This document shows, one piece after another, positions 1,500-18,099 of a DNA stretch of 64,000 bases (position 1 is its first letter; every line of letters begins with the position of its first letter). A program made the translations under genes and the position numbers. The notes beneath the pieces were generated by a model. It was not told where the DNA came from. It worked only from the letters and a program-made list of their open reading frames with translations, and searched no databases. The stretch comes from Thermoanaerobaculia bacterium (GTDB taxonomy: Bacteria; Acidobacteriota; Thermoanaerobaculia; UBA5066; Gp7-AA6). The stretch is taken from positions 3,539 to 67,538 of the forward strand of contig DATKAE010000084.1 in assembly GCA_035498405.1 (NCBI GenBank), in the 5' to 3' direction.

Positions 1500-1577
<78 letters not shown>

Positions 1578-1635
1578 CAAACTCAAGCAGTTAGTCAACA
1601 TGAAATTCCCGTCGGCGGGCCGACTGTGCCCAAAG

Positions 1636-1806
1636 TCACTTCCGAACCTGCGCCCGATGCGCCGCCGTCCTCTCCAGGGCGTCGCGCTGGTCCTCGCCGG
1701 AGACGATGTTGTAGCGCTCGAATATCGCGGCGGTCTCATGCCTCGAGATGCTCTGGGCGACCGACTGGGCGACCCGAGCCTTCAGCTTGAACTCGGGGCC
1801 GTTCCG
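1636..1806 (-). pseudogene. Tyrosine recombinase (phage-type integrase) C-terminal remnant
   Basis: Hand translation of the minus strand gives RNGPEFKLKARVAQSVAQSISRHETAAIFERYNIVSGEDQRDALERTAAHRAQVRK*. The ...(H)xT..IF(D/E)RYNIV..EDL/QR.A tail is typical of integrase C-termini that carry the catalytic Tyr. It is preceded by an in-frame TAG, has no start codon and has no N-terminal domains. Confidence 0.5.
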
Positions 1807-1869
1807 CTAACCTTCCTCGGACCCCTGATCGTGGCCATCCACACCCCGCTCAAGCGTTAGGCAAAAGTG

Positions 1870-2535
1870 TCAAATTTGCCGGGTCAACCGCCTTTCATCT
1901 AAACAGTCGTTCTCCCGTTCTCGCTTCCGTCGCTTGTGGAAAGGCCGGGAGGCGGAGACCCGGCCCCTCGGCTGCCCCTGCTCCGTCAGTGCGAACGGCC
2001 ACCAAAGGACAAAAGGGGCCGCGAAGCGTCCGACAAGCTGGTGGAAGTGAAATCCGGTCGCCCAGAAATTTCGCGCGAACGGGCCGTAGTTCGCTGCGCT
2101 CCAAGGGCCGAGCCTCGTTGCGTAGAGTGTCCGGACTTGAAAGAAAAGGGCGACGACATGGACCAAGCAGAGGACACCCGCGACAAGGAAAAAGGCTCCC
2201 ACTCGGTCTCCTCGCCAAGGCTTCGCATGCAAGGCGAAGAGGGCGGCGAGGATCACGAAGTTGAAGTGGAGATCGCCGGCGGGGATTCCCGGCCTGGGCG
2301 AGCTGGGAGGAAAGTCTTGGCGCTCGACAAGGATCTCACGGGAGTCGGCGAGAGGCCGGAGCCAAGTCACGGCGGGGTTCTCTGTCGCGCGCAGTACGAA
2401 CTCGGCCGCCGCTGCGAGCAGCCGCTCGTACGGCGCGGCGAAGCCCTTCCAGACCAGCAGGCCGAGAAGGAAACCGAGAAGAAGCCTCCCGGTGACCGCG
2501 AGGCCGCTCTTGGGAAGCGCGAACGTCGTCATCAT
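1870..2535 (-). CDS. Polytopic membrane protein, putative exosortase-associated partner
   Basis: 221-aa ORF with several hydrophobic segments. It lies 9 nt downstream of the exosortase gene on the same strand and has no enzyme motif. The name is by context only. Confidence 0.55.
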   Translation of the reverse strand: MMTTFALPKSGLAVTGRLLLGFLLGLLVWKGFAAPYERLLAAAAEFVLRATENPAVTWLRPLADSREILVERQDFPPSSPRPGIPAGDLHFNFVILAALFALHAKPWRGDRVGAFFLVAGVLCLVHVVALFFQVRTLYATRLGPWSAANYGPFARNFWATGFHFHQLVGRFAAPFVLWWPFALTEQGQPRGRVSASRPFHKRRKRERENDCLDERRLTRQI

Positions 2536-2544
2536 GTCCGAGGC

Positions 2545-3081
2545 TCACCGAGCTCCGGAGGGAGAAGCACCTGGCGAGAGAGCTGTTTCCATCTGCCTGG
2601 CCCAGAGAAGGAACAAGACCACCCCGAAGATGACCATCACGGACTGCCAAAGGACCGTGTGCAATGGGGAAAAGAGAGCAGGACGGTGCCTTCCCACCCA
2701 GAAGAGTGAAGCGACCCGCACGAAATTCAGAAGTTCAATCGCTAGAAATCCCGCGAAGAGCCCGACGGCGCGTCGCTGCCAGTTCGCGGGAAACGCGAGG
2801 ACCGCGGAGCCGAAGAGGAGCACGGTCTCCAGGCCATTGCAGCCGTTCTGGATGTTGACGGCGAACTCGGTCGACCGGATCTCGGTACCGTCCACGGTCA
2901 CAGCCTCTCCGAGGGCCTTCAAGAGAATCGCCGAGACTGCGGCGATCCATCCCGTAAATGGCACGATGACCACGTCGTTGACCGGCCGTAAGGCTACCGC
3001 GAAGAAGAAGAAGAAAAGAATGCCGATGAAGCGGGCCAGAAACACGAGCGAGCGGCGGCGGGCCAAGGGAGCCCCTCGCAT
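2545..3081 (-). CDS. xrtH: Small exosortase family protein (XrtH-like, IPTL-CTERM-type)
   Basis: About 178 aa when trimmed to the internal ATG at 3081 (alternative 3108); the listed 241-aa ORF runs into the upstream gene. Carries the exosortase/archaeosortase signature residues: NGCNGLE (Cys), LLNFVRV (Asn..Arg) and PLHTVLW (His). An IPTL-CTERM substrate is in the same cluster. Confidence 0.75.
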   Translation of the reverse strand: MRGAPLARRRSLVFLARFIGILFFFFFAVALRPVNDVVIVPFTGWIAAVSAILLKALGEAVTVDGTEIRSTEFAVNIQNGCNGLETVLLFGSAVLAFPANWQRRAVGLFAGFLAIELLNFVRVASLFWVGRHRPALFSPLHTVLWQSVMVIFGVVLFLLWARQMETALSPGASPSGAR

Positions 3082-3209
3082 CCGCTCTTTAACTTCGACC
3101 GAATGCATCGCGCTGGCGGTGGATCGGCCTAGGTTCTTCGAGGACTTCGCCACTGTCGGGTTCGCGAGAAGCTTCACGGTACAGAGGACTGATCTTCGGT
3201 CTGCTTCGG

Positions 3210-4736
3210 CTACTGAAAGTAGCCGTTGACGTCGATGATCAGGTGGACCGTTCCGGAGGTCTGGTCGCACCAGACGTCGAGGCCTCCCGAGGGGCCGAGC
3301 GTGGCGATCGCGTTGTTCGCCCGGGTCTCTCCCAGCCGGTAGTTGATGGTCGAGACCAGGGGCAGCGCCGCGCCTCCCGGGAAGAGGCGGAGGTCCCCGG
3401 CAGCCGTGGGCTGTGTAATCGTCACGTTGAGCGAGACGGACCGCGCGTCGGCCGGGATGCCGCAGGTCCCGGCGAGCGGGAAGATCCGGTCTGCCCCGGC
3501 CGCGAGTGCCGGCCCGCCGAGCGGCGCGGCGGCGTTTCGCGTGTCGAGCACCCGGCAGGGAGTAAGCGTGTAGAAGTCGAGGTTGGCCTTCGAAGGGAGA
3601 GCGACCTTGAAGACGGTGCCGAATCCGGATCCTCCGCCGCTGGATGTCGTCCCGTAGAGGTATCCGTCGCTCCCGAGCAGGAGCGGAGCCCTCGGGCTCG
3701 ATCCGTCGGTGCCATGGAAGTAGTGGAAGACGACGAAGTTGCCTGCCGGCGTGATCTGGAAGAGGGTGCCATTGCCATCCACACCGCAGGCGCTGGTCGT
3801 TCCGTACAGGTTCCCGCCTACCTGGATGAGGCCCGCGTTCGGGACGCAGCCATCGGCGTCGACGAAGGAGCGAAGAGTCGCAAAAGAGGTGCCGTCGCGG
3901 GCCATTCGAAAGAGAGTGCCGGCGCCCGCCCCTCCCGATCGCGTGGTTCCGTAAAGGTTTCCGTCGCTCGCCGCGAGGAGCTTTCCGAAAGGTGCGGCTC
4001 CCTCGCCGGGTGAGGCGCCGAAGGAGTGGAGGACCGTCAGGCTTCCGCTGGAAGTCATCCCGTAGATCGTTCCCTGGCCATACGTTCCATAGGCTTCGAT
4101 CGTCCCGTAGAACAATCCATCCGTCCCCTCGATCGGGGGGGCGTTGGGATACCTGCCGGTGCTGCCGTCGAGCGTGTAGAGCGTCGACAGCCCGCCTCCC
4201 GAGGTGACTCGGAAAACCGTGCCGTACACGTACACGGGCCCAATTCCGTGATTGGTCGTCCCGTAGAAATAGCCGTCACTTGCCAGAACGATCCCGTTTG
4301 GCTGGCCGCCCTCGCTGCCGTAGAAGTGGAAGAGCGTCGCAAAGGCTCCCGTCGGCGTGACCCTGAAGAACGATCCATAGTCCAGGAAGCCGTACCCGAC
4401 CGTTCCATAGAAGGCGCCGTCGCTTCCGTCGACGAGGGCGGCGCGCGGAGTCGCGCCGTCGTTTCCGTTGAAGGAGTGAATGGTCATCAGCGTGCCCCCC
4501 GGCGTGATCTGGAAGATCGTCCCCACGCCGTTGCTTCCGCCCCCCGAGGTCGTCCCGTAGAAGTTGCCGTCAGAGCCCTCGACGAGCCCCGCCTCGGGCG
4601 TCGACCCGTCGTCGCCCGTTCCGGAGAAGCTGTGGAGGACCGTCAGGACCTGTCCGCCAGCGGGACCAATCCCGGCACAGAGGCCGAGAAGCAGGAAGGC
4701 CGACGCGAGGGCGCCGCGCCTATTCGAAGTAGCCAT
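3210..4736 (-). CDS. Secreted GloVer (Gloeo_Verruco) tandem-repeat protein with C-terminal 122-aa 'TPCRVLDTR' module
   Basis: Signal peptide MATSNRRGALASAFLLLGLCAG. Repeats of the form LvegsDGnfYGTT.sGG..g.GTiFqiTp.G.lt.lhsF. The last 122 aa are homologous to the C-terminus of the 1717-aa protein. Confidence 0.8.
   Translation of the reverse strand: MATSNRRGALASAFLLLGLCAGIGPAGGQVLTVLHSFSGTGDDGSTPEAGLVEGSDGNFYGTTSGGGSNGVGTIFQITPGGTLMTIHSFNGNDGATPRAALVDGSDGAFYGTVGYGFLDYGSFFRVTPTGAFATLFHFYGSEGGQPNGIVLASDGYFYGTTNHGIGPVYVYGTVFRVTSGGGLSTLYTLDGSTGRYPNAPPIEGTDGLFYGTIEAYGTYGQGTIYGMTSSGSLTVLHSFGASPGEGAAPFGKLLAASDGNLYGTTRSGGAGAGTLFRMARDGTSFATLRSFVDADGCVPNAGLIQVGGNLYGTTSACGVDGNGTLFQITPAGNFVVFHYFHGTDGSSPRAPLLLGSDGYLYGTTSSGGGSGFGTVFKVALPSKANLDFYTLTPCRVLDTRNAAAPLGGPALAAGADRIFPLAGTCGIPADARSVSLNVTITQPTAAGDLRLFPGGAALPLVSTINYRLGETRANNAIATLGPSGGLDVWCDQTSGTVHLIIDVNGYFQ
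3336..3479. repeat. Near-identical 144-nt patch, copy A (partner 4846-4989)
   Basis: 4 mismatches in 144 nt against 4846-4989, including a 66-nt identical run (CCGGTAGTTGATGGTCGAGACCAGGGGCAGCGCC...). Flanking parts of the same domain are clearly more diverged. Confidence 0.85.
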
Positions 4737-7700
4737 TCACGTCCACGATAAGGTGCACGGTTCCCGAGGTCTGATCGCAGCGCACCGAGAGGTCCCCGGA
4801 GTCCCCGAGCGTCGCAATGGCATTGTTGGCGCGAGTCTGACCGGCCCGGTAGTTGATGGTCGAGACCAGGGGCAGCGCCGCGCCTCCCGGGAAGAGGCGG
4901 AGGTCCCCGGCCGCCGTGGGCTGGGTAATCGTCACGTTGAGGGAGACGGACCGCGCGTCGGCCGGGATGCCGCAGGTCCCGACGAGCGGAAACGTTCGGA
5001 CCGCTCCTGCGACGAGGGCCGGACCGCCGAGAGGCCCGTCGGCGTTGCGTGTATCGAGTATGCGACATGGGGTCAGCGTGAAAAATCCGGGAACGGGAGA
5101 CCCGGTGCCTTCGACGGTTGCGCAGGCAGACGAAGAGTCGTTGTCGGAGTTCGGATCGATCTGATCTCCCGAGACGGAGACCGTGTCGCAGGCGCTGCCC
5201 GCCCGCGTCGTCAGCAGCACGACCGTGACGTTCGCCGTCGCGCCGCTCGAGAGATCTCCGAGCGCGCAGGTGATGACGCCGGCCGATAGCTCGCAGGTTC
5301 CGCGGTCAGAGTCGGCCGAGACGAACGCGAGCCCCGAGGGTACGGGATCGGTCAGCGTGACGCCGGTGGCCGTCGCCGGGCCGACGTTCTTTACCTGGAT
5401 CGAGTGTGTCCACGATCCGCCGAGCATCACGGGGTCGGGCGAAGCGGTCGACGTGACCGAGAGATCCGTCGTCTGGCTCGTCTGGGGGATCACCTCCTCG
5501 GTGACCGTCAGCACCTGCGGGCTGCCGGCCGATCCGGTGCTCGTGATCGTGATGTGCGCCGTGTAGGTCCCCGGGCCCGTCAGGGCGCTCGGATCGACGC
5601 CGACGAGGAGTTCGGAGGGCGCGATTCCGGAAGCGGGGCTGAGGGTCACCCAGGACGCGTCGGCCGAGGCGCTCCAGGTGACCGTGCCGGTGCCGGAGTT
5701 GCGAACCCCGAGCTGCTCGGGAGCCGGCGCGGGACCTCCGTTGTCGCTGAAGAAGCGGATGGGTGCGGGACCGGCGACGAGCGTCGGCCCGGGCCTCGCC
5801 ACGCTCGCGGCGATGGTGACCGACACCGTCGACGTGCCCGTCTGGCCGTTGGAGTCGGTGGCGGTGAGGGTCAGCGTGTGCGTTCCGAGCGACAATGCGG
5901 CCGTATGAATCAGATGACCCGTGCCCAATGCGCCGTCGAGGCTCGAGCTCCAGCTGAGCTGCGCATCTCCCAGGGTGCCGTCCTCGTAGTCCTCCCCCAG
6001 ACCTTCGAGTGTGACGACCTGCCCGGCCTGGTAGACGGCGCCGTTGGCCGGGCTCAGAATCTGTGCCTGTGGAGGCTTGCCCGCCACGGTAAATGGGCCG
6101 TTGTCGGCAAAACCGGTGAGCACGCCGTCGCTCCCCACGACACGCAGGTAGCCCGACGCCGCGCCGCCCGTGCCTTCGAGTTCCGAGGCTTCCAGCGGAA
6201 GGCTCGTCCCCGCGATTCCGGTCGCGATGGCTCGCCAGGTGGACTTGCTGGTCGGGCTGTACAGCACGGTGTAGGTGAGGGCGTCGCCATCGACGTCGGA
6301 GCCGCTCCAGCTGAGGGTGACCGGTCCGCTCGCCGGCAGGCTCGGGCCGCCGCTGCGGGAGAGGATCGAGACCGTCGGGGGGTTCGCGCTGACCTGCCTC
6401 GAGGCGATCTCGTGGCCGGTGGCGTCGGAGAAGATCGTGATCCGTTTCGTTCCGGCGGCGAAGTCAACGATCTGCTGGATGATGCCCGTGTCTCCGTCGT
6501 CGGTCGAGACGAGCGGGGTGAAGGGATGGTCGGCCAGAATTCCACCCGCTCCGTCGAGGAGCCGAATGCGATACGGCCCCGCGACGAGGGGGGGCACGGT
6601 CGCGACCTCGGACTGCCGCGAGAGAACGACGAACGACGCGGCGTCGGAGGCGAAATCGATCGTGCCGTAGACCGAGAGGAAGTCCCCGGTCGTCTGGGTC
6701 CGCGCGGCGGCCATGGTCGTGGATCCTGCGACCACGGCCGGGAAAGTCGCGTTGATGTATCCGCTCAGTCCCTTGTAAGTGAAGTCGGAGGCCCACTCGT
6801 AGGCGCAATAGGTCATGATGTCGGTCCAGTTCGGGCTCACGGGTTGCGGTGCGATGTTGAAGCGGGCATCTCCCGCGTCGAACCCCGCAAACTGCAGGGG
6901 ACTCGTGGCGGGGCCTCCGATCAGGCCGTTCGGGTACGGGTAGGCGGGCGCGACCTCACCGGCTGCCCAGACGGCGCCGCAGAACGTGGAATGGTGCCGG
7001 CCGAGCGCGTGTCCGATTTCATGGCAACCGTACCAGTCGCCATAGGCGGCATCGGTATCCCACCTGAAATTCGGGAATGTCTGCGGGTTCCCTGTCGGTC
7101 CCGATGCCTGGAACGACGGGATGCCCGCGGACGAACCTCGCATGAACCCGCCGCTGTCGTCCACCATGCCGTAGTAGACGACACCCGGGTCTCCGGCGTT
7201 CCAATTGTTCCGGATCCAGAGCAGGACCCCGTTCACGACGTTCGAGGTCGGAACGGCCGCAGAAACGTAGTCGACGAAGGTTCGCCGGACCACGTTCAAT
7301 TTGCTGATCGGGTACATGCGGCGCAGTTCCGACTCGAGGAGGCTCTGGTCGAGGGCGGCCGCCGAGACGAGGACTCCTCCGGGAAAGCCGCCGTTGTAGT
7401 ACTGGTAGTTCACGATGCGCAGCGACGGCGTCTTGGCTGCCGCGAACGTTACGTCGACGGAATCGCTGTTGTTACCCGGATCATCCTCGGCGACGGTGTG
7501 CGCCGGATCGATCTGAGCTCGGAGCGTGATCGTTCCGGCGTGGATCCACTCTTTGGGAAGCTCGAAGTAGAACGAATCGTCCAGGAGAGTCCGGTGGGGC
7601 ACCGTCGCAACGTTGATGACGGCGCCGCGGTTCAAGGGCTGGAGGGCGGCGCCGAGGCTCGCGCCGCCCTGCGAGCCCTCGAGTTTCGCGGTGATGCCGC

Positions 7701-9873
7701 TCGCCGGCTTTAGGCCGGCCACGTGGAAGCGCACGAACGTGCGCTTGTCGGCGATGAGGGGGACGCTGTTGGTCAGATCCTGCACGGATTGCGTCACCTC
7801 GATGCTGTGGGACGTGCAGGAGGACCGCAGAGGAAACAGCTCGATCGCGTTCGTCTGCGAGAACTCCGACGTCGAACCGGCGGCGTCGGTGGCCGTCGCG
7901 GTGACGTAAGGAGGGAAAGGCACCGCGCGGGGTGCGAGCGCGGAAAGAGCGGCGTCACCCGGGAGCTTGCCCGCGATCGAGATACAGAATGAGCCGGACG
8001 CGTCAGGCGTCGCGGACGTGAGATAGGTCTTGCCCTCGCCGTGCCCCGAAGGATCGCTCGTGTCGCTCGCGTAGAAATCGATCTGCACCGTCGTCGGGTT
8101 GGCCGTATCGACGTGTCCTCGGAGGATCGTCGTGTTCGAGGCGCCGTCGTAGACCGCGGAGACCCCGACGGGGAAATTCATCAGGCTGTTCGGCCCGGTG
8201 TCGGTGTCTCCCGGATCGTTGGCCGTCACGCCGTCGGCGCCCAGGTCGATGCCGAGCCCGCCATTGTCGTGGATGCTGTCCCCGCGGATGGAGTTTCCTG
8301 TCGCTGCCGCGCCCGTAACGGTCACGCCGTTGCCCGTGTTGAAGGCGATGACGTTAGCCTCGCCGGCAGCGGTCCCGCCGATAAAGTTGCCGGTGGTGGC
8401 GTTGATGAGAACGCCGTCGCCACCATTGTGCCGGTTGGCTCCGGCTGCATTCGACCCGATCCAGTTTCCGAGCACCTTGTTGCCCGTTGCGCCGGCATTG
8501 CGGATCTCGACGCCGTACAGGGTGTTTCCGGAAATGACGTTTCCCGCGCCCGCGACCGTCCCGCCGATCGTGTTGTTCGGGGCGCTGTCGACGACGATTC
8601 CCTTGCTGTTGGGGAGGGCGGCACCGCTCGCGTTGACGCCGATGAGGTTGCCCTGGACCAGGTTGTCGTGCGCGTCCGCGGTCCCGAGAAAGATTCCGGG
8701 AAGCGTGTTGCCCGCGATGACGTTCGATTCCGCCGCGCTCGATCCGCCGACGAAGTTGCCGGGCGCCTGGACGAAGACGCCGTTACCCGCGTTGGGGAGA
8801 GCGGCGGTCCCCGTGCTGTCGGTCCCGATGTAGTTGCCGAGAACCTTGTTTCCCGTCGTACTCGTCCCGACGATGCTGACTCCGGAGGCGCCGACAGAGC
8901 CCGAGACGATGTTGCGGGCGCCGGAAGCCGCACCGCCGATCATGTTGCTCGAGGCGCCGCCGACGATCACCACGCCCTCCTGCGCATTGCCAAGCGGGGC
9001 GGTTCCGAAGACGTCGGTGCCGATGAAGTTGCCCTGCACGATGTTGCCGGTGGCCCCGCTGCCCGTGATCCCGATCCCGGGGAGTGCGTTTCCCGAGATC
9101 AAGTTCCGCACGCTGAAGTCGGTTCCGCCGATGACGTTGTTGGCGGAGTCGATATAGATGCCGTTGCCGGTGTTCGGGATCTTCGCCGTCCCGGACGCAT
9201 CCGTCCCGATGCGGTTGTTCTGCACGGTGTTCCCGGAGGCGCCCGCGCCGGTGATCTCGATTCCCGCGCCGCCGTTTCCCGAGGCGACGTTTCGACCCGC
9301 CGGAGTGTTGCCGCCGATGAAGTTGTCGGCGGAGCCCACGTAAATCCCATCGCCGGAATTCGGGAGGGACGCCGTTCCGGTGGCGTTGGTGCCGAGGAAA
9401 TTCCCCTGGATCACGTTGCCGCCGCCGGTGAGCAAGACGATCCCGTGACCGAATCGATTGATCGCAAGACCCTTCACGGTGCTGGACCCGGCCAGAATTG
9501 TCAGGCCGTTGCCTGGCGCCACAGCGGAGCCGTTGAGCTCGATCAGCGGCGTGGCGGCATAACCGGTCTGCGTCGTGCCGTCGATGATCACCGGGTCGGT
9601 GATGTCGGGAAGCGCGGTTGCCGGTGTGATCGTGTGCACGCCGGTGCCCGGGATGCCGAACGCGATCATGTCGGTTCCCGCGTTGGCGTTGGCCTCCTGG
9701 ATCGCGGCCCGCAGCGTGCAGTTGCCGTCGGTGTCCGCGCAGATACCGTCGCCGATGGTCTTGTCCGGCTTGTCATTGGTGGAGTTCACGGTGAACGTCG
9801 CAGCCGTGGCGACGGCGCCGGTCAACAGCAGGACGAGACCGAGGCACGACTGCCGGTGAGCGATCCCGCTCAC
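4720..9873 (-). CDS. 1717-aa secreted multidomain protein: CSLREA-like motif + parallel beta-helix repeats + metzincin-like protease + Ig-like domains + DUF11-like repeat + C-terminal 122-aa module
   Basis: GTG start at 9873, 5 nt after GGAGG, overlapping the upstream stop as GTGA. Signal peptide SCLGLVLLLTGAVATAATF. Contains GNCTLRAAIQEANA, about 10 repeats of GN.IGG....N.ISGN...GI.I.G..A.GN.VQGN.IGT, WYGCHEIGHALGRHH (nt 7009-7023 = HEIGH) followed by DIMTYC, and a DUF11-like stretch (LTDPVPSGLAFVSA). The listed 2084-aa ORF is a read-through into the upstream gene. Confidence 0.8.
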   Translation of the reverse strand: MSGIAHRQSCLGLVLLLTGAVATAATFTVNSTNDKPDKTIGDGICADTDGNCTLRAAIQEANANAGTDMIAFGIPGTGVHTITPATALPDITDPVIIDGTTQTGYAATPLIELNGSAVAPGNGLTILAGSSTVKGLAINRFGHGIVLLTGGGNVIQGNFLGTNATGTASLPNSGDGIYVGSADNFIGGNTPAGRNVASGNGGAGIEITGAGASGNTVQNNRIGTDASGTAKIPNTGNGIYIDSANNVIGGTDFSVRNLISGNALPGIGITGSGATGNIVQGNFIGTDVFGTAPLGNAQEGVVIVGGASSNMIGGAASGARNIVSGSVGASGVSIVGTSTTGNKVLGNYIGTDSTGTAALPNAGNGVFVQAPGNFVGGSSAAESNVIAGNTLPGIFLGTADAHDNLVQGNLIGVNASGAALPNSKGIVVDSAPNNTIGGTVAGAGNVISGNTLYGVEIRNAGATGNKVLGNWIGSNAAGANRHNGGDGVLINATTGNFIGGTAAGEANVIAFNTGNGVTVTGAAATGNSIRGDSIHDNGGLGIDLGADGVTANDPGDTDTGPNSLMNFPVGVSAVYDGASNTTILRGHVDTANPTTVQIDFYASDTSDPSGHGEGKTYLTSATPDASGSFCISIAGKLPGDAALSALAPRAVPFPPYVTATATDAAGSTSEFSQTNAIELFPLRSSCTSHSIEVTQSVQDLTNSVPLIADKRTFVRFHVAGLKPASGITAKLEGSQGGASLGAALQPLNRGAVINVATVPHRTLLDDSFYFELPKEWIHAGTITLRAQIDPAHTVAEDDPGNNSDSVDVTFAAAKTPSLRIVNYQYYNGGFPGGVLVSAAALDQSLLESELRRMYPISKLNVVRRTFVDYVSAAVPTSNVVNGVLLWIRNNWNAGDPGVVYYGMVDDSGGFMRGSSAGIPSFQASGPTGNPQTFPNFRWDTDAAYGDWYGCHEIGHALGRHHSTFCGAVWAAGEVAPAYPYPNGLIGGPATSPLQFAGFDAGDARFNIAPQPVSPNWTDIMTYCAYEWASDFTYKGLSGYINATFPAVVAGSTTMAAARTQTTGDFLSVYGTIDFASDAASFVVLSRQSEVATVPPLVAGPYRIRLLDGAGGILADHPFTPLVSTDDGDTGIIQQIVDFAAGTKRITIFSDATGHEIASRQVSANPPTVSILSRSGGPSLPASGPVTLSWSGSDVDGDALTYTVLYSPTSKSTWRAIATGIAGTSLPLEASELEGTGGAASGYLRVVGSDGVLTGFADNGPFTVAGKPPQAQILSPANGAVYQAGQVVTLEGLGEDYEDGTLGDAQLSWSSSLDGALGTGHLIHTAALSLGTHTLTLTATDSNGQTGTSTVSVTIAASVARPGPTLVAGPAPIRFFSDNGGPAPAPEQLGVRNSGTGTVTWSASADASWVTLSPASGIAPSELLVGVDPSALTGPGTYTAHITITSTGSAGSPQVLTVTEEVIPQTSQTTDLSVTSTASPDPVMLGGSWTHSIQVKNVGPATATGVTLTDPVPSGLAFVSADSDRGTCELSAGVITCALGDLSSGATANVTVVLLTTRAGSACDTVSVSGDQIDPNSDNDSSSACATVEGTGSPVPGFFTLTPCRILDTRNADGPLGGPALVAGAVRTFPLVGTCGIPADARSVSLNVTITQPTAAGDLRLFPGGAALPLVSTINYRAGQTRANNAIATLGDSGDLSVRCDQTSGTVHLIVDVNGYFE
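4846..4989. repeat. Near-identical 144-nt patch, copy B (partner 3336-3479)
   Basis: See copy A. The two are offset by exactly 1510 nt and occupy the same position within the homologous C-terminal modules. Confidence 0.85.
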
Positions 9874-11027
9874 GAGGGCCTCCGCAACAGGAACAGCCCC
9901 GCCGCCACGAGCGAGAGCGCGAGCACCGCGAGGAACGACGGGGACAGCGTCGGGATGGCGGCCGCCGGGGCAGGACCGACCGGCGGTGCAGCCGTCGGGG
10001 AGGGAGCCGGGCCGAAAGTGGGAGTGACGGTTGCGGTCGGCGTCGCCGTGGGCGCCGCCGCGAGGCTGTAGCGCCCGATCGCACTCGTGTTCTCCTCGGT
10101 GAACCAGATGTTCCCGTCCGGTCCCGTCGCGATGCCCCAGGGTCCGGCGTTGATGGTCGGGACCAGAAACTCGGTGATGACTCCGGCCGTCGTGACCCTC
10201 GCGATCCTGCCCGCGCCGAGGTAATCCTCCGTGAACCACAGGTTCCCGTCCGGGCCGACCGCGATATCGCGCGGCCCGCTGTTGCTCGAAGGGATCGGGA
10301 ACTCGGTGATCACGCCCGCCGTCGTAATCCGCCCGATCTGATTGCCGCCGTATCCCTCCGTGAACCAGAGGTTGCCGTCCGGGCCCGCCGTGATGCCGTA
10401 GGGGCCGCTTGCGGGCGTCGGGATCGGGAACTCCGTGATGACGCCAGCCGTGGTGATCCGGCCGATCTTGTTGGCGAAATCGCGGCCCTCGGTAAACCAG
10501 AGGTTTCCGTCCGGCCCCGACGCGATGAGGTAAGGCAGGCTGCTGGTTGTGGGTATCGGAAACTCGGTGATAACGCCGGCTGTAGTGATCCGCCCGATCT
10601 TGTTGGCTTGTTCTGTGAACCAGAGATTCCCGTCGGAACCGGCGGCGATGCCGAAGGGCCCGCTGGTCGGCGTCGGGATTGCAAACTCCGTGAGAACGCC
10701 GGCTGGCGTGATCCGGTCGATCCGGTTCGTGCTGGAGACCGTAAACCAGAGGTTGCCGTCCGGACCCGGCGCGATGTAGACAGGGCCGCTCGCAAACATG
10801 ACCCCAGGGATTAGGAACTCGGTGATGACGCCGGCCGTCGTGATCCGGCCGACCCGGTTCCCAATGACGTTCGATTCCGTGAACCAAAGGTTTCCGTCGG
10901 CACCCACCGTGATGCTCAGCGGGCCGCCGGCCGTCGGAGTCGAGAACTCCGTGAACATCTGCGCGGTCATGCACCCGCTGGAGAGGATTCCGGCGAGAAG
11001 CCAGGCCCGCGTTGGCCTGCCGCGCAT
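9870..11027 (-). CDS. Vgb-lyase-like beta-propeller repeat protein with IPTL-CTERM sorting signal
   Basis: ATG at 11027 after GGAGG. N-terminus is lipoprotein/signal-like (AWLLAGILSSGCM). Seven repeats of GPDGNLWFTE...IGRITTAGVITEFPIP. C-terminus is a P/A linker followed by IPTLSPSFLAVLALSLVAAGLFLLRRPS (IPTL motif + TM + basic tail). Confidence 0.8.
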   Translation of the reverse strand: MRGRPTRAWLLAGILSSGCMTAQMFTEFSTPTAGGPLSITVGADGNLWFTESNVIGNRVGRITTAGVITEFLIPGVMFASGPVYIAPGPDGNLWFTVSSTNRIDRITPAGVLTEFAIPTPTSGPFGIAAGSDGNLWFTEQANKIGRITTAGVITEFPIPTTSSLPYLIASGPDGNLWFTEGRDFANKIGRITTAGVITEFPIPTPASGPYGITAGPDGNLWFTEGYGGNQIGRITTAGVITEFPIPSSNSGPRDIAVGPDGNLWFTEDYLGAGRIARVTTAGVITEFLVPTINAGPWGIATGPDGNIWFTEENTSAIGRYSLAAAPTATPTATVTPTFGPAPSPTAAPPVGPAPAAAIPTLSPSFLAVLALSLVAAGLFLLRRPS

Positions 11028-11143
11028 GGGTACCTCCCCGGGCCTACTGCCGGACGATCCGGCGCGAGGCCCGCTGTCGCTCTGACAGTCGGCGCGGCGT
11101 TTTGTTTCGCGGCGAAGCCCGGCGGGCGTCGAGCCGGCAGGGT

Positions 11144-11797
11144 CTACGGGGAGGGCGCCTCGAAGCGGTAGACCGTTCCCCGGTAGAGGACGACCACGCG
11201 GGATCCCAGCGAGGCCCACGGCCCGAGATCCGGAATGCGCGAGAGGACCTCCCGTCGCTCTTCGGGTGTCGCGACGCGGACGACCGGTAGGTCGGCGGAA
11301 GGATCGAACTCGCGATCCACCCATTCCCCCGCGATCAGATCGAAGCTCTTGCCGGCGACCACCCGACGGCCGGATCGGTGCAATTCGGGCGGCCGCGAGG
11401 AGTGCCGCGGAGCCGCTGAAACCGCCGGAGCGGGAGCGGCGCCCACCTCCGAGGGTGCAGGCGCGGCGGTGGGTGCGGCCGGCGCAGGGGCGGCGGGCGA
11501 GCGGCCCTCGGAAGGCTTTTCGGAGGTGATCCGAACGCCGAGCCACGCCGCCACGAGAAGCGCAGCCGCTGCGGCGAGCAGGCCAGCGACGGGAGAAAAA
11601 ACGAACCGGGCGTGGCGGGCGCGCGCGGTGAGCGAGACGACCGAACGGCACTCCCGGCAATCCGCGAGGTGCCGGATCATTCGGGATCGGCCCTCCGCGT
11701 TCAGGTTCTCGTCCAGGAAGGCCGCGAGCGCGCTCGTGTCCGGGTCTCCCGGACGGTGGCTCAAGGTGTCTTGTTGCACGTCACTCCTCTTAGACAC
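11144..11797 (-). CDS. Anti-sigma factor (zf-HC2 type), single-pass membrane protein
   Basis: GTG start overlapping the sigma-factor stop by 8 nt (GTGTCTAA). HLADCRECR zinc-finger motif, TM segment FSPVAGLLAAAAALLVAAWLGV, P/A linker and a periplasmic domain of about 100 aa. Confidence 0.75.
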   Translation of the reverse strand: MSKRSDVQQDTLSHRPGDPDTSALAAFLDENLNAEGRSRMIRHLADCRECRSVVSLTARARHARFVFSPVAGLLAAAAALLVAAWLGVRITSEKPSEGRSPAAPAPAAPTAAPAPSEVGAAPAPAVSAAPRHSSRPPELHRSGRRVVAGKSFDLIAGEWVDREFDPSADLPVVRVATPEERREVLSRIPDLGPWASLGSRVVVLYRGTVYRFEAPSP

Positions 11798-12584
11798 GTC
11801 CCCGGCCGCGCTTTTTCGTGTCTGGAGGCGCCGCCAGCAGCGCGCTCAGGTCGAAATCCACCCGTCCGAAATCGACCGGGCCGCCGGTCGTGCTCGCGTC
11901 CGCGCCGGTCTCCTCCTTCTCCCGCGTCGCGATCTCCTGACGCAGCCGCGAGCGAACCTCGGCGAGCCTGCGGCTCAGGGTCGCCTTGGAGACTCCGAGC
12001 ATCGGCGAGATCTGTTCGAGAGTCAGCGACTGCTCGTAGTAGAGCAAGAGCAGCAGTCGGGCATCCGCGTCCAGAGCCTGCAGCGCGGCTGCCGTTGCCC
12101 GCGCGAGCGCGCTGAGATCCCGATCTTCGCCGTCGGGCGCGCGCGAGGGCTCTCCCGCGTCCTCGAGCGGCCGATCCCGTCGCATCGCGGCGAGGGCGTT
12201 GCTGGCGGCGTGGGCGACCAGGGTTCCCAGCCACGTGCGCAGCGAGCTGCGTCCCCCGAACTGGCGGATCTTGGCGCGCTGCCACAGGTCGGCGATGACG
12301 CGCTCCGCCACGTCGCTCGCGGGGGGATCGCGGCGAGTGCAGCGCATCGCGAAGTCCCGGATGAACGGGAAGTGTCGGCGCGACAGCTCCTCCCACGCGG
12401 CTTCCTCGCCGGCCGCGCAGGCGGCCGCGAGATAGAGATCGTCCAAGGCCAGTCGGTCGGGACGCGTCCCGCTGGCCACCGCCTCCCGGACGCGGCTTTC
12501 GAGCCCGGCCGGATCGACGTCGAAACGCCGCCGAACGCGGCGCTCGATCTCGGCGCCGAGGTTCCAACTTCGTTCGTCGCTCAA
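11790..12584 (-). CDS. ECF-type RNA polymerase sigma-70 family factor with N-terminal extension
   Basis: TTG start at 12584 overlapping the stop of the upstream CHAT gene (TTGA). Region-2-like segment (AWEELSRRHFPFIRDFA...ADLWQ) and region-4 HTH (LLLLYYEQSLTLEQISPMLGVSKATLSRRLAEVRSRL). The listed 770-aa ORF is read-through. Confidence 0.8.
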   Translation of the reverse strand: MSDERSWNLGAEIERRVRRRFDVDPAGLESRVREAVASGTRPDRLALDDLYLAAACAAGEEAAWEELSRRHFPFIRDFAMRCTRRDPPASDVAERVIADLWQRAKIRQFGGRSSLRTWLGTLVAHAASNALAAMRRDRPLEDAGEPSRAPDGEDRDLSALARATAAALQALDADARLLLLLYYEQSLTLEQISPMLGVSKATLSRRLAEVRSRLRQEIATREKEETGADASTTGGPVDFGRVDFDLSALLAAPPDTKKRGRGRV

Positions 12585-15358
12585 GGCTCGCCGACCAGCT
12601 CGAATCCGGCCCACAGGGCGGGGTCCCGGAATCGCCGCTGCGCCTCGAGCTGCGCGGCCCGCAACGCCTCCGCCTTGCCGTGCCCGGCCTGCAGATTCGC
12701 GTAGAAGCGGTCCATCAGGAAGGTCGTCGCGCGGTCGTCGACGTCCCACTGGCTGACGACGACGGAGGGCGTGCCGGCGTAGAGGAAGGCGCGGGTCAGA
12801 CCGAGAATGCCTTCGCCGGTCACCTCGCCCAGGCCGGTCGAGCAACCGCTCAGGACGACGAGGTCTGCGTGCAGGACGAGGCCGAAGATCTCGTCGGCGC
12901 GCAGATAGCCGTCCTCGCCCTCGCCTTCCGCGAGGAGCAACGCGGAGTCGAGCGGCCGCCGGTCGGAGACTAGGCCGTGCGTCGCGAAGTGGAGGACCTC
13001 GCGGCCTCCGGAGCGGCTCTTGACCGCGGCCTCGGTGGCCGCGGCGCCGGTCAGCACGTCGCGCCGGGATTCGGGAAAGTGCGCCGCGACGAGCGCGCCC
13101 TCCCGGCGGGCTCCGGCCAGCCTCTCGAGCCCGGATCCCCGGGGCGGGACCGGATCCGCCACGACGAGAGCGCTCGTCAGACCCGGGGAATGCCGCCCCT
13201 TGTTTGCCGTGTAGCGCAGCACGGACACGGCCGGAACGACGACGAGCGTATGCCTCTCGAGAAGGGTGCGACCGCTGCGGTCGAGGAGAGCCGCGAACGG
13301 AAGCAGAGAGAGAATGCCCTGCGGCGCCACGATCAGGAGCTCCTCGGGGCGCGCGGGGAGCCAGCGCGCGACCGGTTCGATGAGCAGGCGATCGAGCTCG
13401 CGCAGGCGCCGGGCGGCGTCGCGCCGCGCGGCCGGGCTCGAGCGGTTCATGTCGGCGAGGACGGCTTGCACGAGCGAAGCGAGGCGGCCCCGTCCCGCCT
13501 CGAGCGATTCCTCGTGCAGCTCTCCTTCGGGAGAGAGCGACCAGAGAAAGAGCCGATCCTCGGTCAGGAGGTATTCGACGAGCGTGCCCCTCCGCGCGGA
13601 GACGGCCTGCCGGATGTCCTCGCCCGTCGGGGTCTCTACCGTCAGGAGGCTTGCAAGCTCGGGGTCGCGTTTCCGGAGCCGCGAGAGCGCCGCGTCGACG
13701 CGGTCGGGAGCGCCACGAGCTCCGGCAGCGACGGCTGCGTCCCCTGTCGGTAGAGGCGTCGCGCGAGTCTCTTCGAGGGCCTGCCGCACGTCTTCGAGGG
13801 CCTCGCGGGCGTCCGGATGCGGTGCCCCGCCTCTCTGCCCGAGGAGGTCGGCGAGGGCGCGGGCGCGGCAGGCCTCCGCGACCTCCAGAGCCTCCTGCGG
13901 GAGCCCCGCTCGGGTGAGCGCCTCGACGAGGTCCTCGAAGGCGCGGCGCCTCTGCTCGAGGAATCCGATCTTCCCCGGGTCGGTCCGGACCTCGGCCCTC
14001 AGGTCGTCGATGAGGCGGACGCTCGCGCGAAGGGCCTCGACCGCTTCGGGATCTCGGCCGAGCGCCCGAAGCGCGCGGGCGCGGTCCGCCTGGACCTGCC
14101 ACTCGATGTCGGGCATGGTGTTCGTGCGCGCCAGCGAGAGTGCGGCGTCCATTCGCGCGAGGGCCTCGGAGGGCCGCCCGGCGCGCAGGTCCAGCACGCC
14201 GAGCGAATCCAGGTCCGAGGCCTCAGGATCCGGTTCCCCGATCTCCCGGGCGATGGCGAGGCTCTCTTCCAGATTGGCGCGCGCCGCTTCCAGATCGCCG
14301 AGCTGGATGCACACGTCGCCGAGCTGCGACAGCGTGCGGGCCGTCTCCGCGCGGCGGCCGAGCTTCTTCCACACCGCAAGCGCCTCGTCGTATCGCTCGA
14401 GGCCCTCGCGTTCGTGGCCCAGATGGGTGAGGCAGACCCCGATGTTCCAGGCGGCAAAGCCGATCTGAGCCTTGTAGCCGATCTTCTTCGCGATGACGAG
14501 GGACTCCTGAAAACGCGGCTTCGCCTCCTCGAACTGTCCCAGATCCATGAGGACCACGCCGATCCCGTTGAGCGTCTGCGCTTCGCCTTGCCGGTCTCCT
14601 CCTTCCCGCCGCAGAGGCAGAGCCTCCGCGTACAGATCGAGCGCCTTCGCGAATCGACCGCGGGCCCGGGCCACGAGACCGAGCGCGTTGAGAGTCTGGC
14701 CGATGGCCGCCGGATTGCCTTGCCCGCGCCGGATCGCCAGGGACCGCTCCATCCATTCCTCGGCGTCTCCGTAGTGGGCGAGGAAGCGATAGACGAGACC
14801 GATGTTCATGGTCGCGACGCCTTCGAGGCGGGCGGAAGGGGCATAGGCGTCGACCTCGAGGGCCCGACGATAGGCGTCGAGGGCCTCGGGGTAGCGGGCA
14901 AGGCTGTAGTTCGAGAGGCCGATGTCGTTCCAGTTGAGGGCCTCCTCGGCGGTCTGGCCCAGACGCTGGCGGATGACGAGCGCCTCGCGCAGCGGCTCGA
15001 GCGCCGCCGCGGAGTCTCCCGAGAGCCAGCGCGCTACTCCCAGCCCTTCGAGGGCGTCACCCGTGCTCCGTTCGTCGCAGAGGGCTTCGGACAGGTCGAG
15101 AGCCGCCTGAAACCGTTCGACGGCTTCCGGGCCGTTGCCGGTCCGGTTGGCCTCCTCGCCGGCCGCGAGCTGCTTTCGAAGCTCCGCTTCCTTCGCCTCC
15201 GAGGCCGACGGCGGCGCCGACTCGACCCGAGTGCCGGCGGAAGGGGCCCCGACGGCGCGGGCGGGACGGTCCGGCGCGGCCGGGTCCGCCGACAGGGATG
15301 GCGTCGCCAGAGCGAGCAGGCACAGCAGGGTCGGGACAGCCAGGAACTGGACCATCAC
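12581..15358 (-). CDS. Exported TPR-repeat CHAT-domain (caspase-fold) protease
   Basis: 925 aa. Signal peptide MMVQFLAVPTLLCLLALATPSLSA|DP. About 10 TPR-like repeats. C-terminal CHAT domain with the dyad HFATHG (His codon 12977-12979) and VLSGCSTG (Cys codon 12842-12844). Confidence 0.85.
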   Translation of the reverse strand: MMVQFLAVPTLLCLLALATPSLSADPAAPDRPARAVGAPSAGTRVESAPPSASEAKEAELRKQLAAGEEANRTGNGPEAVERFQAALDLSEALCDERSTGDALEGLGVARWLSGDSAAALEPLREALVIRQRLGQTAEEALNWNDIGLSNYSLARYPEALDAYRRALEVDAYAPSARLEGVATMNIGLVYRFLAHYGDAEEWMERSLAIRRGQGNPAAIGQTLNALGLVARARGRFAKALDLYAEALPLRREGGDRQGEAQTLNGIGVVLMDLGQFEEAKPRFQESLVIAKKIGYKAQIGFAAWNIGVCLTHLGHEREGLERYDEALAVWKKLGRRAETARTLSQLGDVCIQLGDLEAARANLEESLAIAREIGEPDPEASDLDSLGVLDLRAGRPSEALARMDAALSLARTNTMPDIEWQVQADRARALRALGRDPEAVEALRASVRLIDDLRAEVRTDPGKIGFLEQRRRAFEDLVEALTRAGLPQEALEVAEACRARALADLLGQRGGAPHPDAREALEDVRQALEETRATPLPTGDAAVAAGARGAPDRVDAALSRLRKRDPELASLLTVETPTGEDIRQAVSARRGTLVEYLLTEDRLFLWSLSPEGELHEESLEAGRGRLASLVQAVLADMNRSSPAARRDAARRLRELDRLLIEPVARWLPARPEELLIVAPQGILSLLPFAALLDRSGRTLLERHTLVVVPAVSVLRYTANKGRHSPGLTSALVVADPVPPRGSGLERLAGARREGALVAAHFPESRRDVLTGAAATEAAVKSRSGGREVLHFATHGLVSDRRPLDSALLLAEGEGEDGYLRADEIFGLVLHADLVVLSGCSTGLGEVTGEGILGLTRAFLYAGTPSVVVSQWDVDDRATTFLMDRFYANLQAGHGKAEALRAAQLEAQRRFRDPALWAGFELVGEP

Positions 15359-15453
15359 AATAGTTTCCCGTTTCCGCAGACGACATTCCAGCGGCCGCGG
15401 CGGTCCGCGGAGCGCCCGGATCAGACCCGCGTGGTCCTGAGGGTCGCCTTTGA

Positions 15454-15501
<48 letters not shown>

Positions 15502-16015
15502 TCCCTTCAACGAGTTCCGCTGCCACGCTCCGCTCATTTCTGCATCTACCTCGCTCGGACCGTAGCGGTCCCGTAGCCGTTCGTGGACTGCAAACGTCCG
15601 ACAACCGTCGTCTCGTTCGAACACTCACTCGCGGGTTCGCCCCAAGTCAATCAACCGGGGTATCGAGCGCCGACCGACAGCTACTGTTGGCCTCCACCGA
15701 TGCCCTCAAGGATGGAAGCGCGCAGGCGACTTCGAGAATCGCGAACGACGGCCGCGTCCTCCCAGAGCTCTCGATAAACGATGAATCGGTCACCAACCCT
15801 TTCGGTACAAATGGAACTGGCCAGCCAGACTGCCCTTCGACATCCGCGAAAGGCTTGCGGCCGCTGAAGGCGTCGAGCCAAGAGCCTTACCTCCTCGCCC
15901 CCCTCATCTTTCTCGGTGAGATAAGATTCGCGCAGCGGATCGAGGAGGAAATGGACATCCGGTGCGAGTGCCGGCTCCTGCCTCATTTCTCCCAGCCTTC
16001 CGCCAGGGAGGTCTC

Positions 16016-17416
16016 ATGTCTCGTCTGATTCGTATCTCTCCTCTGATTCTGGCTTCCCTCTTCTACGCCAATGGGGTTCTTGGCCAGGAGATCCCGGCGG
16101 CGCGGCAAATTGCGAACTGGCCGGCGCCGCTCTCTTGGACTCCTTCGGGTGAGACAATGTCTGCCCCCGAGGGGGTCGGGCCTGGGGGCGCACGTGGCCT
16201 GACGCCGCTCTCGACCACGGCAGTTCCCCTGACCTCGCCAGAGCCTTTTGTTGGGATCACGCCCTGCCGCATCGCCAACACCACCGGCAACGGCGGCTTC
16301 TCCGGCGCCTACGGCCCTCCCGCGCTGTCCCAGGGTGTACCCCGCGACTTCACCCTGACCGGCCAGTGCGGGATCCCGGCCTCGGCAGTCGCCGTCTCTC
16401 TCAACCTCACCGTGACCAACACCACCGGTGCCGGCTTCATCAAGATCTTCCCCGCCGGCGGATCGATACCCACCGTCTCGACGCTCAACTACGTGGCCGG
16501 CCAGGTCATCGCCAACGCCGCGGTCGTGCCGCTCGGGACCGGAGGCGCGATCACCGTGATCGCCGGCGTCTCCGGCACCGACTTCATCCTGGACGCCAAC
16601 GGGTATTACGGAAGCACAGCCGCGTCCAACACGAACGTGTTTCTCGGCCCCAGTGCCGGCAACTCGACGATGAGTGGCATCCGAAACACGGCCATCGGCC
16701 ACGAAACGATCCCCTTCAACACCACCGGAAATGACAACACCGCCATCGGCTCCCTCGCGCTCAATGCCAACACCACCGGCGTCCTCAACACGGCTGTAGG
16801 CCGCGTCGCGCTCATCAACAACACCAGCGGCAGTGGCAACACCGCGGTGGGGATTGGTGCGGGCGCCAATCTCACCACGGGAGGCAACAACATCGACATA
16901 GGCAACGCGGGGGTTGCGGCGGAGTCGAACACCATCCGGATCGGCACCAGCGGCACGCAGACGAAATTTGTCGTTGCGGGCGTGCGGGACGCAACCGTCC
17001 TGGGCGACGCGAATGCCGTCCTCATCGATTCCAATGGGACGCTTGGAACGACCCCCTTCTCCTCTGAGAAATGGAAGAGGGAGATTGCAGATATCGGCCA
17101 GGAGAGCTCCGCACTGCTGAAGCTCCGGCCGGTCTCCTTCTACTACACGAGCGACACGAGAGGTATCCGCCAGTACGGCCTGATCGCCGAGGAGGTGGCC
17201 GAAGTGATGCCGGCTCTGGTGCAGTGCTCTGCGAACGGAGAGCCCGAGGCGGTCCGTTACCAATTCCTCGTTCCGATGCTCGTCAACGAGGTCCAGAAGG
17301 ACCGAAAAACGATCCAAGAGCAGAGCCGCGAGATTCAGGAGATCAAGGCGGAACTTCAGCGTTTGGAGGCAGTGATCTCGGTTCGGGCGGATCGGGAAAC
17401 AACGCCCCGGCCATAA
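16016..17416 (+). CDS. Secreted tail-fibre-like protein: 122-aa 'TPCR' module + short Gly/Asn-rich fibre repeats + C-terminal peptidase-S74-type intramolecular chaperone domain
   Basis: ATG at 16016 after GGGAGG, with signal peptide MSRLIRISPLILASLFYANGVLG. Module at nt 16247-16612. Repeats NTAIG..../NTAVG.... C-terminus SSEKWKREIADIG...LRPVSFYY...YGLIAEEVAEVMPALV...VRYQFLVPMLVNEVQK plus a coiled coil, as in phage tail-spike and endosialidase chaperone domains. Confidence 0.7.
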   Translation: MSRLIRISPLILASLFYANGVLGQEIPAARQIANWPAPLSWTPSGETMSAPEGVGPGGARGLTPLSTTAVPLTSPEPFVGITPCRIANTTGNGGFSGAYGPPALSQGVPRDFTLTGQCGIPASAVAVSLNLTVTNTTGAGFIKIFPAGGSIPTVSTLNYVAGQVIANAAVVPLGTGGAITVIAGVSGTDFILDANGYYGSTAASNTNVFLGPSAGNSTMSGIRNTAIGHETIPFNTTGNDNTAIGSLALNANTTGVLNTAVGRVALINNTSGSGNTAVGIGAGANLTTGGNNIDIGNAGVAAESNTIRIGTSGTQTKFVVAGVRDATVLGDANAVLIDSNGTLGTTPFSSEKWKREIADIGQESSALLKLRPVSFYYTSDTRGIRQYGLIAEEVAEVMPALVQCSANGEPEAVRYQFLVPMLVNEVQKDRKTIQEQSREIQEIKAELQRLEAVISVRADRETTPRP

Positions 17417-18034
17417 GCCCCGAGGGGATTCCCGTTCAATTCCAGGTCTGAAGCGCAGGTGGGATGCGTGCGGGGAACCATTTCGACGAGCCACTTACGA
17501 GGTGGCTCGCGGTGGGCAGATGGTGAGCCGTGTGGGACTCGAGAGCCGCCAGGGGAGTCACCCTTCCGTGGACCTTGGCGGGGGACTCAGGAGTCGGAAC
17601 GCGCTTGGCGCAGTTTCAGAGCGCCAGAGAGCCCAAGACATGGGACCGCGTCGTTGATGGCACCCGCCCCGAAGGCGGTGTAAGAGTCGTTTGCCATCGC
17701 GGCCACCGCCCGGAGGGCCTGCCGAATTGCTTCCCGCTCTGCCACCAGGCAGCTGGTGTCCCTTGAGCATCCGTTCTCCTGATTCTCGAAACCCTCCCCG
17801 TGAGCGTGCCGCTTGCAGAGCCAGGGGGGTCCGTGATGCCTTGACGAGTTTCACTGCGTCTCCCTTCTGGCCCTCCTCGTGACCGGGGCCATTCATCTGG
17901 TCACGACGGGCGTGGCTAAAACGTAGCGGTTCAGGCGCCGTCAGGCGGGTGCAGCAGCCTTCATCGCGATCGCGAAGCCCGCGAGTTCCCGAGCATTGAT
18001 GCTCATGGCGTATCATCGGAAACCAGAGTCGGGG

Positions 18035-18081
<47 letters not shown>

Positions 18082-18099
18082 CTGCTCTGCTGTTCTGCG

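Follow-up and report, generated by a model that had tools for sequence, protein, structure and literature searches.

How a small membrane enzyme of the exosortase type came to lie, together with large secreted proteins, directly beside a tRNA gene, and which of these proteins it would sort, is the question raised by five co-directional, tightly packed genes on the minus strand (positions 1870-11027) of a 64-kb stretch of DNA, hereafter the window. The source is a wetland bacterium of the class Thermoanaerobaculia (Acidobacteriota), of whose genome the analysis covered this window. We consider it likely, with a probability of about 0.72, that the locus is a decayed tRNA-Pro integrative element carrying exosortase H (XrtH), its partner protein and one matched client, a Vgb-like propeller, and that the other two secreted proteins are not clients. 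The five packed genes and their overlaps had been proposed from the letters of the window alone (hereafter the sequence-only reading); open reading frame (ORF) calls agree with that structure, and independent gene calls on four metagenome contigs of identical sequence returned the same five genes.

The 178-aa protein, which had been called an exosortase from a Cys / Asn..Arg / His signature, passed the model for exosortase H (TIGR04177, 120.5 bits against a cutoff of 86) and the signature model TIGR04178 (54.9 bits, cutoff 23), and Pfam Exosortase_EpsH was also matched. XrtX was the runner-up subfamily model (65.6 bits, cutoff 170), and all other exosortase and archaeosortase subfamilies scored far below their cutoffs. 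Cys81, Asn119, Arg122 and His141 are invariant across an alignment of 20 XrtH sequences. The predicted signature was thus upheld, and the model search that had been proposed as a check returned a specific subfamily. Approximately 300 homologs were found (58-100% identity), and those with a named source are annotated as exosortase H from Thermoanaerobaculia or Acidobacteriota metagenome-assembled genomes. The AlphaFold2 (AF2) model has an all-helical membrane fold with a predicted local distance difference test (pLDDT) score of 85.6; no solved relative was found by sequence or by fold, and no copy on viral contigs. In the archaeosortase ArtA, Cys173, Arg214 and Arg253 have been shown to be critical (PMC9263693), and, as read from the alignment, Cys81 and Arg122 of XrtH are separated by 41 residues, a spacing equal to that of Cys173 and Arg214. 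With regard to the start of the gene, the gene callers picked versions of 173 or 187 aa, not 178 aa.

A homolog of the partner is found directly downstream of XrtH in 82 of the 83 related loci, the sole exception being located at a contig edge. The window protein shows hydrophobic segments at approximately residues 10-36, 84-102 and 114-132 in a simple hydropathy scan, and it aligns with the XrtH-partner model NF041730 over model positions 7-178 of 184. The sequence-only reading had described it as a polytopic partner beside the exosortase; this model alignment, together with the synteny, points to a conserved XrtH-associated gene.

The propeller had been described as Vgb-like and seven-bladed, in agreement with a Pfam Vgb_lyase score of 362 bits and seven repeat units of about 129 nt. 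It shares only the fold family with the streptogramin lyases: it scored 414.9 bits with the NCBIfam Vgb(A) model and 237.3 bits with Vgb(B), against a cutoff of 600, and such an activity was rejected for a protein that is below this cutoff, exported and fused to a sorting tail. At the extreme C-terminus a Pro/Ala/Thr-rich linker, of a kind typical before the motif of sorted proteins, is followed by IPTLSPSFLAVLALSLVAAGLFLLRRPS. This tail consists of IPTL, SPSF, a transmembrane (TM) helix LAVLALSLVAAGLFLL (hydropathy peak at residues 363-381) and RRPS, and therefore has the tripartite layout of motif, hydrophobic helix and basic cluster. We searched for this layout, defined as [IVL]P[TVAS][LMIV], a hydrophobic core and a basic end at the end of an ORF. 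Exactly one such tail, that of the propeller, was found in the window. The 1.42 Mb of DNA surrounding 83 other XrtH genes yielded only two, each ending within about 340 nt upstream of XrtH (IPVLFPTML...RRV at locus L005 and VPTLGGNG...RRR at L006). These two loci harbor the closest long-contig relatives of the window XrtH (71% and 68% identity, respectively). Tail and enzyme occur together in all three places, in the window within the same operon. Within the clade of the window XrtH an adjacent tail gene is present in three of six loci, compared to none of 78 others (chance of this split 2e-4). The client at L005 is also Vgb-like, so the type of client is likewise conserved. From this adjacency we infer that the tail is a lineage variant of the IPTL signal without WG, and that the propeller is a cognate client. 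The L005 gene (L005:9653-9994) lies 7 nt upstream of XrtH, and its 113-aa product, in which a single Vgb-like blade is combined with a signal peptide and an IPVL-TM-RRV tail, may be a minimal or decayed client.

Several results weigh against our reading of the locus, those on the sorting system being given here and those on the island further below. The IPTL-CTERM model TIGR04174 spans positions 1-27 of 27 on the tail at 13.4 bits (12.3 for a shorter segment), below its cutoff of 20.5, and the tail is therefore a non-member by the curated test; it also lacks the WG of IPTLxxWG. Between the client gene and XrtH, 6.8 kb away, lie two non-client genes. The partner scored 21.6 bits with NF041730 against a cutoff of 35. 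Finally, no RNA runs were listed for the operon. Of the IPTL-CTERM signal proposed by the sequence-only reading, the motif, helix and basic end were thus recovered, while membership by the curated model was not. The only NCBIfam model that scored the tail above TIGR04174 is that of the related midcut-by-XrtH family, and P0195, a Vgb-like homolog whose tail (IPTLQQW) is clearer, likewise reached just 17.5 bits on TIGR04174. Partners at three other Thermoanaerobaculia XrtH loci (L005, L006 and L007) scored 21-24 bits on NF041730, likewise below threshold. On alignment and gene order the 221-aa protein is the predicted lineage version of the XrtH-associated partner, and NF041730 under-calls all four proteins tested.

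The low score of the tail, its missing WG and the two unrelated genes between client and enzyme could also be accounted for if the tail were a mere membrane anchor next to an XrtH that serves clients encoded elsewhere, the adjacency being coincidental. The lack of a client near XrtH in 77 of the 83 related loci, which implies that clients are normally distant, is in line with this. We hold such a coincidence to be improbable, as the tails in the 1.42-Mb control occur only directly upstream of XrtH, at L005 and L006, the L005 client once more combines a Vgb-like blade with an IPVL tail, and the window motif is preceded by the Pro/Thr/Ala linker.

The proposed client is one of three large secreted proteins. 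That it alone carries a sorting signal, and that the other two share a different end module, had been claimed from the sequence and is borne out by the tail search and by the identity of the two module copies. The 1717-aa protein and the GloVer protein have signal peptides (the latter with an N-terminal hydrophobic segment) and no sorting tail, and they have in common a C-terminal module of 121 aa, with 105 of 121 residues identical and 83% identity at the DNA level. The AF2 model of this module, made from a small alignment, is an eight-stranded jelly roll (pLDDT 90.7), and its top Foldseek matches are the C-terminal domain of the Bdellovibrio fibre protein Bd2133 (E 3e-5, TM 0.58-0.62) and CBM6/CBM36-type modules. 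The module was considered as an alternative membrane-sorting signal and rejected, since the model and the fold matches describe a soluble, lectin-like jelly roll; most simply it is a ligand-binding or attachment domain. Judging from the modelled fold, the 1717-aa and GloVer proteins are probably not clients of XrtH, and their shared module probably binds glycan.

The GTG start of the 1717-aa gene overlaps the propeller stop by 4 nt (as GTGA), and the GloVer gene overlaps the 1717-aa gene by 17 nt; both overlaps, as well as the GloVer repeats (TIGR03803, 320.8 bits, seven stretches), are as the sequence-only reading had them. The 1717-aa protein contains a CSLREA N-terminal domain, BACON_2 and DUF11, and its glycine-rich repeats, read by eye, appear beta-helix-like. 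It also harbors the zinc motif HExxHxxGxxH (HEIGHALGRHH, residues 951-961), although support for a peptidase is marginal (Pfam Peptidase_M10 and Reprolysin_3, E 0.065-0.2). The jelly-roll module terminates several unrelated Vgb-like propellers, in the position that is taken by SLH domains in others and by an IPTL-type tail in one. Propellers from other metagenomes that end in the ...TRANNA...DVNGYF module are P0165, P0167, P0181, P0194, P0219, P0232 and P0137; many others end in SLH domains, and P0195 in its IPTLQQW tail. The Vgb-like propeller is freely combined with differing C-terminal attachment devices.

The position of the operon in a tRNA-integrated element, also claimed by the sequence-only reading, was corroborated by attachment (att) repeats, an integrase remnant and the absence of the block from close relatives. 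The 3'-terminal 47 nt of tRNA-Pro(CGG) (1530-1576, att copy 1), which reach back to the anticodon loop, recur exactly at att copies 2 and 3. Rfam and ARAGORN identified no complete tRNA-Pro other than the integration target, so that the distal copies are not full tRNAs. The interval ending in copy 2 (1577-15500, 13.9 kb) is referred to as island A. Besides the integrase remnant and the five genes it encodes a zf-HC2 anti-sigma factor, an ECF sigma factor and a TPR-CHAT protein, all in the same direction. The remnant (...SISRHETAAIFERYNIVSGEDQ...) lies directly after the tRNA, reads towards it and includes the C-terminal RY motif. In tblastn it matched the C-terminal ORF of an integrase that adjoins the orthologous tRNA-Pro on the soil metagenome contig L088 (48% over 33 aa, E 3.7e-5, window 1687-1785), an ORF recognised by Pfam Phage_integrase at 47.6 bits. 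A further, weak match (E 0.005) is to the L007 integrase, in the region of its C-terminal ERY. Searched alone, the 56-aa remnant yielded no useful Pfam result, and tblastn returned no match in phage records or in the 83 XrtH loci and one chance-level match in plasmids; it was the L088 comparison that established its identity. The L088 integrase itself (L088:776-1809) is spread over two ORFs that overlap (776-1411 and 1402-1809), owing to a frameshift or an assembly error.

The block is absent in all four relatives that were read across the site (L090, L091, L093 and L094). In L090 and L093, of which the flanks show 87-90% DNA identity and the flanking Ser/Thr kinase 91-93% protein identity, no island is present at the site, and tRNA-Pro is followed by its native trailer and the same downstream sequence; the order in L090 is thrA-thrB-thrC-asd, then LexA, tRNA-Cys, tRNA-Leu and RNase III. 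The same tRNA-Pro has been reused in other relatives, with L094 carrying an extra att copy and L088 an integrase.

As for the island, the integrase is reduced to approximately 56 codons, and no intact or excised copy of the island was found. Its composition is host-like (GC 0.678 against 0.670, tetranucleotide r 0.98) and not atypical. No empty-site or excision joint was found in the Logan contigs of four wetland metagenomes, and depth is even across island and flanks; assembled contigs drop rare variants and break at the att copies, which makes this joint search uninformative. In addition, the native-type tRNA trailer AATCnnnTCAACGA follows att copy 2 (15501-15516), where it matches L090, L091, L093 and L094, and not the outermost copy 3 (18082-18097), a misfit with simple tandem insertion. 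Composition was considered as a sign of foreign origin and gave no indication of it; at 4-12 kb the tetranucleotide correlation is lower, which may, as a guess, reflect the repetitive secreted proteins.

A native region, in which unrelated elements left the tRNA-Pro fragments and from which L090 and L093 lost the block, would be expected to show just such a host-like composition and even read depth without excision, and the interval is indeed prone to rearrangement. We nevertheless judge this to be very unlikely. The att copies bound the block exactly, the integrase remnant is situated at the tRNA-proximal end and the native trailer after att copy 2, the block is missing from the relatives L090, L091, L093 and L094, and XrtH is located elsewhere in 80 of the 83 related loci.

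Only 62 nt separate the truncation point of the integrase from the stop of the partner gene, in the same frame, and the XrtH operon therefore either was original cargo or landed in a decaying island. In the latter case the island would have served as a landing pad: the element decayed, and the XrtH operon or the whole block came later, by recombination or deletion-fusion, from a chromosomal UvrA-SmpB XrtH locus of this genome or a related one. The element would then never have carried the sorting unit as cargo. In line with this sequence of events are the place and frame of the truncation, the chromosomal UvrA...GNAT-SmpB context of the nearest XrtH relatives outside the operon (78%, 71% and 68% identity), the host-like composition, and the rearrangement of the tRNA-Pro-LexA interval in every relative examined. 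We regard it as somewhat unlikely, given that the genes from CHAT to the partner all run one way and leave little DNA unused between att copies 1 and 2, that no second junction or transposase was seen within it, and that a secondary insertion would be an extra event.

In 75 of the 83 related loci (L007-L086; e.g., L007:7135-16131) XrtH lies in a conserved chromosomal gene order, KAS-KAS-4HBT-XrtH-partner-HTH_8-SMC; the presence of lipid-synthesis genes (two ketoacyl-ACP synthases and a 4HBT thioesterase) beside an enzyme presumed to attach clients to an acceptor is suggestive. In five loci XrtH and its partner are found between UvrA and GNAT-SmpB-LpxC. In a neighbour-joining tree, which has no support values and a short alignment and is suggestive only, the window XrtH groups with L005 and then with the UvrA-SmpB group, and has the longest branch. 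Of two further relatives, the XrtH of L095 (78% identical) has UvrA upstream, while that of L096 (89% identical) is preceded by the end of a GloVer-type module, the same order as in the window. No other island genes were found near XrtH at any other related locus. The window pair belongs to a minor XrtH clade of the Thermoanaerobaculia, in which a single dedicated client tends to be encoded right beside the enzyme, and is distinct from the class-typical copy. A more far-reaching and rather doubtful idea is that XrtH, partner and dedicated Vgb-like client of this clade, the last with an [IV]P[TV]L signal that lacks WG, form a portable surface-display cassette. Such a cassette would move between Thermoanaerobaculia genomes on tRNA-Pro elements, act alongside the canonical KAS-linked XrtH of the host and be orthogonal to it, and be transferred as one unit of machinery and client under the control of its own ECF sigma factor, anti-sigma factor and CHAT protein.

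Returning to a decayed element with one matched client, a 13.9-kb integrative element would have inserted into the 3' part of tRNA-Pro(CGG) and later lost its integrase. The three large proteins would be exported via Sec, and the C-terminal helix of the propeller would retain it in the inner membrane. Acting with its partner, XrtH would recognise the [IV]P[TV]L motif immediately external to this helix, cut at that point and pass the mature propeller to an acceptor, by which it would reach the cell surface. These steps are derived from the family and follow the model of ArtA, which cuts a tripartite signal, the substrate then being lipid-anchored (PMC9263693). Horizontal transfer of the sorting machinery together with its clients, as put forward by the sequence-only reading, may have been part of such a history.

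The window locus is a genuine, if rather unremarkable, new example of a sorting system that is already known; its signal is a variant one and its position in the genome is unusual. It resembles the exosortase H/IPTL-CTERM system (TIGR04177, TIGR04174, NF041730) in that the enzyme passes its model, the putative partner gene lies directly downstream and the client combines a signal peptide, an IPTL motif, a TM helix and a basic tail. It differs in having a tail without WG and below cutoff, a partner below cutoff, a tRNA island instead of the class-typical KAS-KAS-4HBT context, and one client in the same operon. Bacterial exosortases are widespread, and we know of no biochemical demonstration of the acceptor to which their clients are attached. 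The VPEID-CTERM/XrtE system (Haft et al. 2012) is reportedly a dedicated single-target exosortase system; it likewise has a small sortase-like enzyme next to a possibly sole client, but belongs to another subfamily and uses another motif. With archaeosortase A/PGF-CTERM of Haloferax volcanii (PMC9263693) the window shares a homologous polytopic enzyme, the 41-residue Cys-Arg spacing and a tripartite substrate signal. Archaeosortase A is, however, archaeal and much larger, and has many clients and no known mobile context. To our knowledge, cleavage and subsequent lipid anchoring have been supported by experiment for no family member other than ArtA. IPTL-CTERM has been mentioned in connection with an S-layer protein of Methylomirabilis (PMC8671808).

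With regard to the setting, tRNA islands with tyrosine integrases likewise show a direct repeat from the anticodon loop to the 3' end, an integrase beside the tRNA, a tandem array and reuse of the tRNA (here in L088 and L094), whereas the window has an integrase remnant, no compositional signature and no sign of current mobility. The sublocation rules for tRNA integration by tyrosine integrases were reportedly set out by Williams in 2002. A precedent on mobile DNA is xrtM, a small exosortase-family gene on Methylomonas plasmids (NZ_CP014361.1 and NZ_CP023670.1), in the first of these next to a gene for a hypothetical protein of about 200 aa and a phage-integrase gene; it differs from the window in its subfamily (27-31% identity), in being plasmid-borne instead of in a chromosomal island, and in its gammaproteobacterial host. 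One of these loci (L092, NZ_CP014361.1:272837-275789), on a MOBH-mobilizable plasmid, has xrtM downstream of an RHS-repeat protein, with a 203-aa hypothetical protein and a phage-integrase-family gene after it. The sequence-only reading had taken the setting of the exosortase to be unusual. Its location in a tRNA-Pro element stands, but this context is less unprecedented than had been supposed because xrtM already occurs on plasmids beside an integrase gene.

Most exosortase systems have many scattered clients and are hard to study for that reason. The present locus is compact: the same operon encodes the small enzyme, its partner and a single obvious client, and it is therefore a practical candidate for heterologous reconstitution. 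The curated IPTL-CTERM and XrtH-partner models under-call in the examples from Thermoanaerobaculia that were tested (the tail in the window and four partners). The locus leaves the understanding of the exosortase family unchanged. Databases contain few exosortases on mobile DNA, and the present one, on a chromosomal island, is a further case; it suggests that surface-sorting capacity can be gained by transfer.

Table 1. Coordinates of the XrtH operon, island A and adjoining features in the 64-kb window.
Feature	Position	Strand	Basis
tRNA-Pro(CGG), integration target	1500..1576	+	ARAGORN; Rfam tRNA 65.6 bits
Tyrosine integrase C-terminal remnant	1636..1806 (56 codons 1639-1806 + stop)	-	tblastn vs L088 integrase
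XrtH-associated polytopic membrane protein (partner), 221 aa	1870..2535	-	NF041730 alignment, synteny
Exosortase H (XrtH), 178 aa	2545..3081	-	TIGR04177, TIGR04178, Pfam Exosortase_EpsH
GloVer-repeat secreted protein, 508 aa	3210..4736	-	TIGR03803
121-aa C-terminal jelly-roll module, copy 2 (GloVer protein)	3213..3575	-	identity to copy 1
1717-aa secreted protein	4720..9873	-	CSLREA, BACON_2, DUF11 domains
121-aa C-terminal jelly-roll module, copy 1 (1717-aa protein)	4723..5085	-	AF2 model, Foldseek
Vgb-like seven-bladed propeller, 385 aa, proposed XrtH client	9870..11027	-	Pfam Vgb_lyase
Propeller C-terminal sorting tail IPTLSPSFLAVLALSLVAAGLFLLRRPS	9873..9956	-	layout; TIGR04174 below cutoff
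zf-HC2 anti-sigma factor	11144..11797	-	Pfam zf-HC2 25.4 bits; one TM segment at 70-88
ECF-type sigma-70 factor, 264 aa	11790..12584	-	TIGR02937 74.9 bits vs cutoff 42.9; Sigma70_r2 + r4
TPR-CHAT protein, 925 aa, first gene of co-directional island block	12581..15358	-	Pfam CHAT 233.5 bits, TPR_12 163.6 bits
att copy 2, right end of island A	15454..15500	+	exact 47-nt repeat of tRNA-Pro 3' part
Second small island-like segment, ends in att copy 3 (18035-18081)	15501..18081	.	repeats, Pfam, no L090 counterpart

Beyond the operon, the CHAT-TPR/sigma module was considered as a defence system and rejected, PADLOC having given a generic TPR match only. A promoter and terminator scan returned background level only.

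The second segment encodes a tail-fibre-like protein (15920-17416, plus strand). Near its N-terminus this protein carries a diverged, 48%-identical copy of the jelly-roll module (16247-16609); it also has short repeats of the NTTG type and, at the C-terminus, an intramolecular chaperone domain, Peptidase_S74.

The stretch from tRNA-Pro(CGG) to LexA, compared as window 1577-18298 with L090:12572-19076, L094:12461-21600 and L091:12554-13442, differs in every relative examined: L090 has thrABC-asd, which the window lacks between these two genes, L094 a GT2 gene, the extra att copy and other genes, and L091 proC. The tRNA-Pro-LexA interval is a plasticity zone. In all four wetland metagenomes the contig word depth rises to 67-1800x at the tRNA and att copies (1000-1600, 15424-16024 and 17828-18428), compared to about 10-20x elsewhere, a jump that likely stems from many genomes in the samples sharing these sequences.

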